From Eubacterium sp. (GTDB lineage Bacteria > Bacillota > Clostridia > Lachnospirales > Lachnospiraceae): a DNA stretch of 64,000 nucleotides. The translations under genes were made by a program, and so were the position numbers. A model generated the notes under the pieces. The model was not told the DNA's origin. It was given only the letters and a program-made list of their open reading frames with translations, and did not search any database. This document shows positions 5,438-62,514 of the stretch, in pieces (positions within the stretch are counted from its first letter, which is position 1; the number at the start of each line of letters is the position of its first letter). The stretch is from the NCBI GenBank assembly GCA_024684035.1, contig JAIKXQ010000059.1, positions 12,232 to 76,231 on the forward strand. The letters run 5' to 3'.

Positions 5438-5467
5438 TTTCTCACTTCATCTCCGTCTTATTATGGT

Positions 5468-5493
5468 ATAGGAAATTGTTCCGCAATCCCCAT
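5468..5493 (+). repeat. REP-like 26-bp hairpin core, family 3 copy 1 (outer stem 5461-5500)
   Basis: ATAGGAAATTGTTCCGCAATCCCCAT; near-identical copies at 12158, 50387 and 52312. Confidence 0.75.
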
Positions 5494-5531
5494 ACCATAA
5501 CGCTCCGCGGGATGCGCTGCAGGACTTTGTT

Positions 5532-7653: not shown

Positions 7654-8328
7654 ATGGCTGAAAAGGGAAGAATTAGTAAGAAACAGCTGGAAATACTGAA
7701 TTATCTCAAGAAAGAAATCCTCCTCAGAGGTTTTCCTCCGTCTGTGCGTGAGATCTGCGAAGCTGTAGGTCTGAAGTCCACCTCTTCTGTTCATGCACAC
7801 TTGGAATCACTTGAGAAGAACGGTTATATCCGCAAGGATGCGACGAAGCCCAGGGCGATCGAGATTCTTGACGATGATTTCCGCGAAGAGAGATTCCGCA
7901 GGATTACACCGGATCCGAGTATTGACACATCGAAACCTTCGGAATTTCAGCAGGTGCCGGTGATCGGTAATGTAGCCGCAGGACAGCCCCTTCTGGCTGT
8001 GGAGGCTGTGGAGTCCTACTTCCCTGTTCCTGTCAGCAAGCTGCCCAACGCACAGACCTTTATGCTCAGAGTACGCGGCGAAAGTATGATCAATGCAGGA
8101 ATTCTCGACGGCGACCTCGTACTTGTCAAACAGCAGGAAACAGCAGCCAATGGCGAGATGGTCGTAGCTCTCATCGATGACTCGGCAACCGTGAAGACCT
8201 TCTACCGTGAGAAGGATCATATTCGTCTCCAGCCGGAAAACGACCATATGGATCCCATCATCGTTACTTCGGATCAGAACTTCAAGATCCTCGGCCTCGT
8301 GATCGGCGTGATGCGTTTCTTCTTGTGA
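7654..8328 (+). CDS. lexA: SOS repressor LexA
   Basis: HTH (GFPPSVREIC..STSSVHAHL..LE), Ala-Gly cleavage site VAAG, catalytic Ser (GESM) and Lys (ATVK). Confidence 0.97.
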   Translation: MAEKGRISKKQLEILNYLKKEILLRGFPPSVREICEAVGLKSTSSVHAHLESLEKNGYIRKDATKPRAIEILDDDFREERFRRITPDPSIDTSKPSEFQQVPVIGNVAAGQPLLAVEAVESYFPVPVSKLPNAQTFMLRVRGESMINAGILDGDLVLVKQQETAANGEMVVALIDDSATVKTFYREKDHIRLQPENDHMDPIIVTSDQNFKILGLVIGVMRFFL

Positions 8329-8332
8329 AGAT

Positions 8333-8359
8333 AGTTTACATAAATATGTTATGTAAACT
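8333..8359. other. Perfect 11-5-11 palindrome resembling the Firmicute dif XerD/RipX arm
   Basis: AGTTTACATAA-ATATG-TTATGTAAACT. Confidence 0.4.
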
Positions 8360-8457
8360 CTTGGCTCGTTTCTGTTTTTTGTCATTAAATGCAATCTGTT
8401 GACATTTTTGAGAAAGAAAATATTATAGCGCTTGTTTTGTGATTAATGATGATTGGA

Positions 8458-8682
8458 TACGCGTCAGGCGGCAAAGTCATACACCACGAACGATAGGAAG
8501 CGAAGGAAGTCAGCGCGAGCATAGCTCGCAGGTGCGTAAGCAATGTTTGAGACCGCTTTGTACATCGCCCGAAGGGCATAAGACAAAGCGGTTGAGTTTT
8601 TGCGTGAGCACCTGCAAAAGGCGGCGGAGCGCTGACAAGTTCGCGACGTGTGAGTGGGTATGCTTTGTCACTGACGCGCGTA
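8458..8682 (+). repeat. Structured modular repeat, family 1 copy A (possible ncRNA)
   Basis: Self-complementary ends; nested stems GCAGGTGC/GCACCTGC, ACCGCTTTGT/ACAAAGCGGT and GCCC-GAA-GGGC; related copies at 44138, 48154 and 62426. Confidence 0.75.
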
Positions 8683-8708
8683 ATATATACAAATCTCTTG
8701 ATATATAA

Positions 8709-8744
8709 AACGGGCAACAGATCAATTAGGATCTGTTGCCCGTT
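8709..8744. terminator. Terminator, mainly for the leftward rsfS operon
   Basis: AACGGGCAACAGATC-AATTAG-GATCTGTTGCCCGTT perfect 15-bp stem. Confidence 0.85.
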
Positions 8745-8769
8745 CTTGATAATATGATAAGCGTTTTAG

Positions 8770-9123
8770 TTATTGGAGGTTCTCTTTCTCCACCAGCTTT
8801 CCGTCTCTCCAGATTCTCTCGATATCGTAGAACAGACGGTTCTCCTCGTCAAACAGGTGAACAATGATATCACCGAAGTCCATCAGAATCCAGTTGGCGT
8901 TCTGATATCCCTCCGTATTCTTCACTTCATGTCCGGCTCTTCCGAGAGCCTCGTCCACGGAATCAGCCATGGCCTGTACCTGGTTACGGTTTGAACCGCT
9001 GGCGATGATGAAGTAATCCGCGATGGTTGAGATATCGGAAATATCAAGGATTTTTATATCCAGTGCTTTTTTGTCTTCGAGTGCTGCGACAGCCAGTGCT
9101 GCCATTTCTTTTGCTTCAGGCAT
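8770..9123 (-). CDS. rsfS: Ribosome silencing factor
   Basis: ALEDKKALDIKILD, ADYFIIASG, WILMDFGDIIVH, RLFYDIERIW. Confidence 0.95.
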   Translation of the reverse strand: MPEAKEMAALAVAALEDKKALDIKILDISDISTIADYFIIASGSNRNQVQAMADSVDEALGRAGHEVKNTEGYQNANWILMDFGDIIVHLFDEENRLFYDIERIWRDGKLVEKENLQ

Positions 9124-9167
9124 AGTTTCCTCTCCTTTTGTCATATGTATGTATATGCGTAGTTGAA

Positions 9168-12096: not shown

Positions 12097-12157
12097 GTTC
12101 TTTCACCTCTGTAATGGTACAACTGTCAGTTACCAGTGGGATGCTGCCTCTTCCGGT

Positions 12158-12183
12158 ATAGGGATTGCGGAGCAATTTCCTAT
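12158..12183 (-). repeat. REP-like hairpin core, family 3 copy 2 (extended stem 12141-12200)
   Basis: Reverse complement ATAGGAAATTGCTCCGCAATCCCTAT. Confidence 0.75.
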
Positions 12184-12191
12184 GCCGTGAA

Positions 12192-21644: not shown

Positions 21645-21696
21645 TCTCAGGATTGAAGGGCTGGGGGAGTCGAAGTCCGCTTGCGGACTTTGTTCA
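21645..21696 (+). repeat. Family 2 copy 2, lying inside the 3' end of the vanZ-like CDS
   Basis: CTCTCAGGATTGAAGGGCTGGGGGAGTCGAAGTCCGCTTGCGGACTTTGTTCA. Confidence 0.75.
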
Positions 21697-22255: not shown

Positions 22256-22377
22256 TGCTGTTCTATCCTTGTGTTCGTGATTGTTACATTCTAATATAAC
22301 GGTTTTTAAATAACTCTACTTATGCTAGCCCGCTTGTCTCGATAGCACGCACCTGCAAGCTCACTCTTCCGCAGGTA

Positions 22378-28156: not shown

Positions 28157-28196
28157 GAACAAAGTCAGCAAGCGGACAAAAGGCGCGCGAGCAGAA
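28157..28196 (-). repeat. Family 2 copy 3, an internally collapsed version
   Basis: Reverse complement TTCTGCTCGCGCGCCTTTTGTCCGCTTGCTGACTTTGTTC joins both ends of the 1909-1997 element. Confidence 0.7.
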
Positions 28197-28217
28197 CCGT
28201 TCTTCATAAAATGGTGA

Positions 28218-44137: not shown

Positions 44138-44415
44138 ATCCGCCACAGAACCAGAGCATACACGCGTACACGTCGCTCTCGTCCTCAGCGCTCCGCCGCC
44201 TATTGCGGGGTGCTCCCACAAAAAGCTCAACCGCTTTGCCTTATGCCCTTCGGGCGATGTCCAAAGCGGTCTCAAACATTGCACGTCTACTCTCCGCTCC
44301 GGTCCGCGCTAAACGAACGTCCCCCGGACGTTCAGCGCCGCACCCGCGCTATGCTCGCGCTTCGTTCTCCGCTTCCAAGTGTACGCTTAGCATGACTCTG
44401 GCTCTGTAGGCGGAT
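44138..44415 (-). repeat. Family 1 copy B, with an extra GAACGTCC-CCC-GGACGTTC arm
   Basis: Reverse complement shares GCAATGTTTGAGACCGCTTTG exactly (21 bp) and about 130 bp overall with copy A; has its own long outer stem. Confidence 0.8.
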
Positions 44416-48153: not shown

Positions 48154-48205
48154 AGTGGGCAAAGCATACTTGCTCACACGTCGCTCTCGTCCTCAGCGCT
48201 CCGCC
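48154..48205 (-). repeat. Family 1 copy C (half element)
   Basis: AAAGCATAC..CTCACACGTCGCTCTCGTCCTCAGCGCTCCGCC matches one end of copies A and B. Confidence 0.75.
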
Positions 48206-48301: not shown

Positions 48302-48376
48302 TCGGGGCAACAAGATTTGAACTTGCGACCTCACACTCCCTAAGCGTGCGCTCTAGCCAAACTGAGCCATGCCCCG
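48302..48376 (-). tRNA. tRNA-Pro, anticodon AGG, CCA not encoded
   Basis: Cloverleaf CGGGGCA-TG-GCTC-AGTTTGGCTA-GAGC-G-CACGC-TTAGGGA-GTGTG-AGGTC-GCAAG-TTCAAAT-CTTGT-TGCCCCG-A; C1:G72 and A73 Pro identity elements. Confidence 0.93.
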
Positions 48377-50290: not shown

Positions 50291-50386
50291 CTCACATAAC
50301 CTCCTGTTGCAGTATAGTTGATTTTATTACAATATTTCATAACATATTGCATTAGAAAATGCAAAGAAATCTCACAATCCATCTGT

Positions 50387-50412
50387 ATGGAAAAGGCGAA
50401 GCAATTTCCTAT
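50387..50412 (-). repeat. REP-like hairpin core, family 3 copy 3
   Basis: Reverse complement ATAGGAAATTGCTTCGCCTTTTCCAT. Confidence 0.65.
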
Positions 50413-50422
50413 AAAAGTACAC

Positions 50423-52206: not shown

Positions 52207-52311
52207 CAGCATGAATAAAATTCATCACATAAGTGATTAAGTTTAATTATTGTGTTCAAATTTATTCATGATCACACGAAACTACGCCTGCAGCGATCCT
52301 TTTTTAATCTC

Positions 52312-52337
52312 ATAGGAAATTGCTTCGCATTCCCTAT
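52312..52337 (+). repeat. REP-like hairpin core, family 3 copy 4 (outer stem 52308-52341)
   Basis: ATAGGAAATTGCTTCGCATTCCCTAT. Confidence 0.75.
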
Positions 52338-62425: not shown

Positions 62426-62514
62426 TGCGCACAGGGACGAAATATGCAAAGCGAACAATAGGAAGCTGAGGACTTCCGCGACGTGTTCGCGTGCATAATT
62501 CGTTTCTGTGCGCA
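62426..62514 (+). repeat. Family 1 copy D (minimal hairpin form)
   Basis: TGCGCACAG..TATGCAAAGCGAACAATAGGAAGCTGAGGACTTCCGCGACGTGTTCGCGTGCATA..CTGTGCGCA. Confidence 0.6.

Follow-up and report, generated by a model that had tools for sequence, protein, structure and literature searches.

The four hairpin elements (copies A to D) in the DNA analysed here, a stretch of 64,000 nt referred to below as the window, belong to a previously undescribed repeat family, termed family 1, which resembles REPINs, ERIC, BOX and Clostridiales-1 elements in general type. Family 1 is, in our judgment, probably a lineage-restricted, non-coding and non-autonomous structured mobile repeat, likely selfish, that spreads via a folded single strand. 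It stands as a well-documented case of a repeat that inherits its fold over its sequence, in a cultured clade of rumen cellulolytic bacteria.

A sequence-only reading of the window had described the elements as four homologous copies sharing a set of motifs. All four do align with one another (Table 1; B and C, by repeat finder, at 89% identity over the 46 nt at 44152-44197 and 48160-48205), and the quoted motifs GGAAGC, GCGACGTGT, ACCGCTTTG/CAAAGCGGT, GCCC-GAA-GGGC and GAACGTCC-CCC-GGACGTTC were found. Minimum free energies of -113.2, -140.6 and -55.4 kcal/mol were computed for A, B and D, with each full copy forming one nested rod, and none of 200 dinucleotide shuffles equalled the native fold (z = -8.9, -7.3 and -8.2, respectively). 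Copy C had rightly been taken for a half copy: it has no left arm, and its fold is unclosed.

Copy A lies between lexA (7654-8328, + strand) and rsfS (8770-9144, - strand), and a tRNA-Pro gene (48302-48376, - strand) adjoins copy C. The inverted repeat between copy A and rsfS is a terminator-like hairpin common to the convergent lexA and rsfS genes that was not called by the terminator scan. A palindrome directly after lexA (GTTTACATAAA..TTATGTAAAC; 8333-8359) is the sole part of the lexA-rsfS spacer conserved in the sister species [Eubacterium] cellulosolvens LD2006 (G014); neither copy A nor the promoter-like site before it, nor any other spacer sequence, is conserved there.

Table 1. Features discussed in the text. 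Coordinates are window positions unless the source genome (G000) and a contig are named.
Feature	Coordinates	Strand	Basis or remark
Copy A, full element: left arm, apical arm I, right arm	8458..8682	+	Folded as one rod
Copy B, full element: left arm, module X, apical arm I, right arm	44138..44415	-	Fold
Copy C, fragment with right arm alone	48154..48205	-	Positions 8-56 of right-arm profile
Copy D, 89-nt mini hairpin: outer stem and two loop motifs only	62426..62514	+	Covariance model, 57.6 bits
Apical arm I of copy A (GAGACCGCTTTG..GCCCGAAGGGC..CAAAGCGGTTGAG)	8540..8601	+	95% identity over 62 nt to 44221-44282 of copy B, opposite strand (repeat finder)
Module X in copy B: 55-nt hairpin and conserved purine-rich tail (GGCGCTGAACGTCCGGGGGACGTTCGTTTAGCGCGGACCGGAGCGGAGAGTAGAC)	44285..44339	-	Covariance model, 80.9 bits
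Promoter-like site TTGACA-16-TATTAT, 11/12	8399..8426	+	~30 nt upstream of copy A; context, not a family trait
22-bp inverted repeat between copy A and rsfS	8702..8751	.	86% complementary, 6-nt loop; context only
Family 2 copies	G000:C18:12631-12831, C62:262-461, C104:9292-9492, C41:32422-32571		BLAST
Family 3 motif pieces	5465-5496, 12155-12186, 50385-50413, 52311-52337; 1906-1933, 28172-28199; 1947-1992, 21649-21694		

To describe the family beyond the window, the source genome (G000; 3.08 Mb in 131 contigs, with the window at C80:12232-76231) was surveyed by BLAST and iterated nhmmer with four modules (left arm L, right arm R, inner arm I and module X) and, separately, with a covariance model of the basal stem (R2). 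The nhmmer search returned 60 left-arm, 72 right-arm, 27 inner-arm and 28 X matches, which resolve into 51 complete L+R pairs, 21 R-only and 9 L-only loci, so that half copies and truncations are common; model R2 returned 63 matches, placing the family total at ~63-72 loci. Copy sizes are continuous from ~60 to 340 nt. Many contigs of this genome begin or end within a family 1 copy, and all copy counts are therefore lower bounds. Copies are intergenic, lie among housekeeping genes in either orientation, and where clustered are found beside aspS, argS, hprK, uvrC, a LacI regulator and a PTS gene.

Full copies are built on an outer stem of ~30 bp that starts (C)GCG.. and finishes ..CGC(G). Its outermost 10-12 bp vary between copies more than any other columns of the element, yet they pair. 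The claims that each copy has its own complementary outer stem and that fixed terminal inverted repeats are lacking thus both hold. Inside the stem, two purine-rich blocks are conserved (left, ATAGGAAGCGGAG..GAAGCGCGAGCATAGCG; right, GGCGGCGGAGCGCTGAGGACGAGAGCGACGTGT), which are not palindromic, do not pair together and resemble direct repeats, while the stems around these loop blocks drift in sequence and stay paired; GGAGCGGAG is a loop motif of the family. The apex, flanked by TGAG...CGAG, carries one of several unrelated hairpins, for example ACCGCTTTG..CAAAGCGGT, GAGCAC-AAC-GTGCTC or GGGCATG..CATGCCC.

Covariation in the family is strong. Pairing holds in 95.7% of cells across 15 A-type copies, in which 18 of 48 pairs have changed on both sides; none of 500 shuffles reached any of these measures and slid controls paired at 27-48%. 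In the basal stem, compared over 42 copies, 22 of 28 pairs have changed on both sides (0/500 shuffles), and the stem of apical arm I covaries as ACCGC/GCGGT, CCCGC/GCGGG and CGCAC/GTGCG. Furthermore, three diverged single copies, one each from Lachnospiraceae bacterium MC2017, congener G020 and a metagenome contig, have preserved the loop blocks between stems that are completely different and still paired. Paired positions therefore change together, beyond all shuffles and controls, and structure is conserved above sequence, as had been proposed from the window copies.

The fold also has a direction. The + strand, defined by the family sense (the + strand of copy A), folds better in 47 of 50 copies, with a mean gain of 14.3 kcal/mol, and this advantage holds in either gene context (tandem sense, 10/12; tandem antisense, 7/8). 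Interior helices contain 170 G-U pairs vs 30 A·C single mismatches. Purines make up 60% of the + strand and 78% of its unpaired bases (42% A, 36% G), and GGA occurs 2-12 times per copy on this strand vs 0-4 times on the other. The asymmetry is intrinsic to the element and independent of orientation to the flanking genes. As a double-stranded DNA palindrome would give no such polarity, one strand, whether as ssDNA or RNA, appears to be kept foldable.

Family 1 is confined to a narrow lineage. Outside the source genome, model R2 gave at least 33 matches in G014, none in the 19 other congeners and none in 150 other genera. BLAST over 20 congeners found the family in numbers in G014 alone (at least 21 matches), with a trace in G020 (one diverged copy); a motif scan of the genomes of 185,579 species gave G014 and one diverged copy in MC2017, and two metagenome contigs carry the family. 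No copy was present on the viral contigs searched, and plasmid and phage collections held nothing relevant.

Within this lineage, copies turn over between sister species. Copies A, B, C and D are all missing from the orthologous sites in G014, copies L027, L034 and L038 of G014 are missing from G000, and other sites are common to both species. At the copy B site (G014:C7) only 12 nt (CGTCACAGGGCG) stand in its place, resembling the end of B, and the spacer orthologous to that of copy C holds another repeat, family 3. The empty site of the L027/C44 pair retains 8 nt from the start of the element (GCGGCAGA) together with a 4-nt repeat, CAGA, for which the simplest reading would be a deletion across the hairpin base that left a scar-like remnant. 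The L038/C26 and copy A sites hold no element remnant and their indels take extra flank; 14-67 nt of extra flank are included in some filled/empty indels. Target duplications, for which a comparison of filled and empty sites had been suggested, were not seen in these comparisons, which likewise gave no inverted ends, a single 4-nt microhomology, no shared target motif at junctions and no clean insertion junction. With a deletion-like scar and extra flank in the indels, gain and loss cannot be separated site by site. The turnover is that of a mobile or fast gained-and-lost repeat, not of a conserved gene, and the absence of all four window copies from the sister species, taken with the strand-specific fold, agrees with the mobile, single-strand-structured behaviour first suggested.

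Two further ideas about these sites were set aside: the notion that the target was copied in inverted form to make the outer stem is unproven, two empty sites keeping part of one arm and two not, and a comparison asking whether orthologous copies are conserved more than their flanks was confounded by a locally 99% identical stretch.

Family 1 copies could be structured RNAs selected locus by locus, either as transcript-end or stabiliser hairpins or as protein-titrating RNA with GGA/GGAGCG-rich loops that bind a regulator, CsrA being one conceivable candidate. Covariation in every helix, unpaired bases dominated by A and G as in many natural RNAs, GGA motifs concentrated on one strand only and loop motifs conserved across species while stems are replaced would all be expected of such RNAs. 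Copy A moreover has a near-consensus promoter before it and a hairpin after it, spacers with copies are more often convergent than divergent (21 vs 9), and the analogous multi-copy Clostridiales-1 motif was judged likely to be RNA by its discoverers (PMC2864571). However, a promoter-like site is found in one of 48 copies, copy A, and that site is absent in G014, so that reading the A locus as a stand-alone ncRNA does not generalise to the family. In tandem gene contexts, 12 copies are sense and 8 antisense, the + asymmetry persisting in the antisense ones; the sister species does without all four window copies; 19 congeners have no model match, one diverged copy in G020 being seen by BLAST; and half and truncated copies abound. 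We consider selection as functional RNA unlikely, and the regulatory role once suggested for the element finds no support, a promoter-like site being present at A alone and copies lying in both orientations to genes.

Palindromes might instead be kept at the DNA level, by template-switch quasi-palindrome correction or arm-to-arm gene conversion, with neither selection on the fold nor dedicated transposition. Several features point this way: copies are palindromic over their full length, hypervariable apical stems included; deletions fall between short direct repeats at hairpin bases; and apices have been remodelled in place in orthologous copies. Comparison of nearest-neighbour copies gave 62 compensated doubles, an over-representation even at this distance, alongside 129 uncompensated breaks, which suggests that pairing may partly be maintained in place. 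Correction of this kind would nevertheless remove loops that are purine-rich, asymmetric and conserved, and under it neither strand should be favoured, against the observed G-U excess, folding gain and purine-rich loops of the + strand. It also leaves unexplained at least 60 dispersed copies whose loop motifs are their most conserved part across species, and as a full account we regard it as quite improbable. A classical MITE, derived by deletion from a DDE insertion sequence, mobilised by the transposase of that IS through terminal inverted repeats and leaving target-site duplications, would match the small, non-coding, intergenic, multi-copy and palindromic character of family 1 and its presence/absence polymorphism between species, but we think this most improbable, as conservation is lowest in the terminal 10-12 bp, filled/empty comparisons show no target duplication, no longer element with the same ends and no likeness to transposase loci, plasmids or phages was found, and strand asymmetry is unexpected of an element cut and pasted as a double strand.

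The identity of the family and of any mobiliser was pursued in sequence databases. All 4227 Rfam families, searched over the whole window at the gathering threshold, gave RNase P, T-box and tRNA matches only and none to family 1. At E<=10, the region 8400-8760 gave five weak matches, every one of them in the flank that begins at 8672, with the folded body of A unmatched, and copy B gave zero; neither A nor B matched RF01699. Together with the comparisons to transposase loci, where no longer element or locus sharing family 1 ends was found, these searches match family 1 to no described Rfam motif or IS end. The check for an associated HUH/Y1 transposase or reverse transcriptase that the earlier reading had suggested was negative: neither adjoins copies nor tracks the family. 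Nine PF01797 (Y1) matches in G000 have no family 1 copy within 4 kb, Y1 genes of the IS200/IS605/RAYT type show neither adjacency nor shared sequence and occur in 16 of 21 congeners regardless of family 1, and for reverse transcriptase G000 has a fragment only, with a genus distribution that does not track family 1.

The mechanism that we propose for a mobile repeat with a folded single strand is as follows. The element would spread, or would have done so until recently, in the [Eubacterium] cellulosolvens clade via a folded single-stranded intermediate, which would be ssDNA, as in IS200/IS605 elements and REPINs, RNA being less likely. Recognition would fall to a factor acting in trans, which would respond to the fold and to the loop motifs but not to the ends, and only copies that still fold would propagate, giving rise to covariation and G-U bias. 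Size classes come about through three steps that individual copies exemplify, namely internal deletion between direct repeats shared by the arms (yielding minis such as D), exchange of the apical hairpin in some copies, and insertion of the separate 55-nt hairpin-plus-tail module X into unpaired loops. Effects on host genes, for example as transcript-end hairpins, would be secondary. Counting against this explanation are that no mobilising enzyme, no clean junction and no strong orientation bias to genes or replication were observed (B and C on the - strand and D on the + strand share one replichore), and that the pattern of compensated and uncompensated changes between nearest-neighbour copies leaves room for some pairing being maintained in place. 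IS608-type ssDNA transposons do show an orientation bias to replication and genes.

The first two of these steps bear on the proposal that the element grows by inserting arms, which stands for module X of copy B and fails for copy D and for the ACCGCTTTG arm of copy A. The junction of copy D, GGAAGC-TGAGGAC-..GCGACGTGT, falls in an 8-nt direct repeat (CTGAGGAC) present in both arms of full copies, and the junctions of other minis fall in GGAGCG (C35:7093) and GCGA (C63:13831), again direct repeats of both full-copy arms. Minis such as D, which had been described as a minimal hairpin, are therefore products of internal deletion and not ancestral cores. The ACCGCTTTG arm of A, supposedly an added arm, is one of several apical hairpins among which copies differ, each taking the place of another at a single position; in the orthologues C10:19187 (G000) and L029 (G014), the arms have been retained and the apex remodelled.

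By contrast with those two cases, the GAACGTCC arm of B is an inserted unit, as the sequence-only reading supposed, and this unit, module X, proved to reach well beyond family 1. It consists of a 35-nt covarying hairpin and a conserved tail (GACCGRAGYGGARCGWAGAC; the tail is also given as GACCGGAGCGGAGCGTAGAC). Of the 14 pairs in its helices, 8 have changed on both sides (0/500 shuffles), and its inner helix covaries between genera as GAACGTCC/GGACGTTC, GCTCGTCC/GGACGAGC and GCAGGTCT/AGACCTGC. Within family 1, X occupies at least five distinct positions, all unpaired in the consensus fold, and between the orthologues C6:12813 and L014 a 53-nt indel inside a 99% identical stretch corresponds to X alone. 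X also occupies the apex of some copies of a second, ~200-nt hairpin family and is cleanly missing from others; in other congeners it occurs without families 1 or 2, inside a further family with copy-specific outer stems of 20-25 bp; and in one genome hairpin 3 of a Clostridiales-1 element (L115; 87 bits) carries it as a 61-nt insertion in its apical loop. X is thus an independent module whose hosts number at least four repeat families, Clostridiales-1 included, and which sits in their unpaired loops.

The covariance model of X scored 65-82 bits in 113 of 301 Lachnospiraceae genera, with 1 to at least 19 copies per genome, and among the matches listed the exact 31-base core occurs at more than 120 loci, including Mediterraneibacter, Lachnoclostridium and many uncultured Lachnospiraceae. 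The module is absent from Rfam. Its flanking genes are unrelated housekeeping genes, relative to which 21 copies are sense, 11 antisense, 12 convergent and 14 divergent; a larger hairpin surrounds 41 of the 69 copies tested; and no transposase was present beside X in the nine loci examined. We tentatively raise the possibility, which we hold to be doubtful, that X is a new kind of miniature mobile element repeatedly landing in unpaired loops of other folded repeats. Were this so, its insertion mechanism would recognise single-stranded loops of already folded ssDNA or RNA, and family 1 would be one host among structured selfish elements that live in Lachnospiraceae as a community of several layers.

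Copies of X are at times arranged in tandem at a spacing of 79-133 nt (G201:C51, G164:C29, G170:C22 and G306:C10). At locus L097 (congener G010:C153:2307-2664), X is flanked on both sides by a tRNA 3' end with its terminator (GGTTCGAATCCCCCTCTCGCTACTTGAAAGAGAATCC...), the two flanks being nearly identical, an arrangement that suggests insertion or duplication within a tRNA gene array. Other identities considered for X were dropped: the motif and spacing do not fit an integron attC site or a CRISPR repeat, and a reading of X as a mere part of Clostridiales-1 fails because none of 18 further X loci matches RF01699.

Several other repeat families came to light in the same genomes. Clostridiales-1 (RF01699) is in this genus a dispersed multi-copy repeat with up to at least 52 matches per genome, and is scarce where family 1 has expanded (8 matches in G000, 6 in G014); its sites include G000:C4:12163-12320, C43:30906-31063 and C73:23112-23269, and it is also seen in congeners G003, G011, G016 and G017. 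Family 2, the ~200-nt hairpin repeat (CAAAATAACTCGACTAATGCGCCGAATGCTTG...TATACTAG) that occurs with or without X at its apex, gave 45 BLAST matches in G000, some of them to the X part of the query alone, and 50 in G014; a related 45-nt piece lies at window positions 22288-22332, and family 1/family 2 chimeras are seen at C5:27046-27383, C97:4218-4497 and C87:4140-4357. Three short repeat motifs of the window are contiguous parts of one ~170-nt element of G014, family 3, which at L017:402-574 (G014) is inserted relative to C27:110798 of G000. In congener G015, loci L085-L092 carry a fourth family with the core CCAGAAGGGAACCTCCGCAGCG...X...CAGAGCGCAAGCG..TTCCCGAATGG, whose outer stems of 20-25 bp are perfect, yet unrelated from copy to copy; such copy-specific stems raise the question of whether they are made from the target at insertion.

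Family 1 sharpens, by its clear polarity and with no recognisable transposase, the question of movement as ssDNA or RNA, and it cautions against calling a repeat a regulatory RNA on the strength of covariation by itself. In practical terms, it accounts for many contig breaks in these assemblies, and its copies could be used as strain-typing markers. Two by-products are more consequential: Clostridiales-1 behaves as a dispersed repeat, and module X, a 55-nt unit that Rfam does not list, occurs in over one third of Lachnospiraceae genera and nests within other repeats. Of all the leads, X would best repay further study.

Among known systems, IS200/IS605-derived elements lack inverted ends and duplications, have strand-specific subterminal hairpins and go in 3' of one set target of 4-5 nt, their orientation following replication. 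In family 1, inverted ends and duplications are absent and folding is strand-specific; its junctions gave no shared target motif, and its orientation is mixed, both on one replichore and to genes (12:8). BOX elements of Streptococcus pneumoniae have the form boxA-boxB(n)-boxC, with paired terminal modules and a variable number of internal modules. Family 1 would share this modular build of paired termini around internal modules, but boxB is repeated in tandem at one position, whereas X is single, occupies many positions and also enters unrelated hosts. The ERIC/IRU elements (Enterobacteriaceae) and bcr1 (Bacillus cereus group) are imperfect palindromes of intergenic, often co-transcribed DNA, in which base-pair compensation preserves a fold at the RNA level (PMC3184786). 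Like them, family 1 is an intergenic imperfect palindrome, present in either orientation, with size classes from internal indels and with base-pair compensation; unlike them, it shows neither terminal inverted repeats nor TA or 5-bp duplications, and there is no sequence similarity.

REPINs (Bertels & Rainey 2011) are hairpins with compensatory changes, and such elements insert into one another (PMC3116915). They resemble family 1 as extragenic, lineage-specific hairpin repeats of two inverted halves in tens to hundreds of copies without target duplication, in which compensatory changes keep a hairpin predicted in ssDNA or mRNA and singlets or half copies decay. However, REPINs have two highly conserved inverted REP ends around a variable spacer and a cognate single-copy RAYT gene flanked by repeat copies, whereas the ends of family 1 are its most variable part, its conserved blocks are internal, purine-rich and non-palindromic, its length is 2-3 times that of a REPIN, and no RAYT/Y1 gene adjoins any copy or tracks the family. 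The Clostridiales-1 RNA motif (RF01699; Weinberg et al. 2010) is a structured motif of unknown function in Clostridia (PMC2864571). It has a closing stem and three hairpins and another sequence, as against the single rod of family 1, and shares with it the character of a non-coding structured element (~160 nt), dispersed in multiple copies in the genus and able to carry X; of catalogued elements, Clostridiales-1 comes closest to family 1, which is not among its members.
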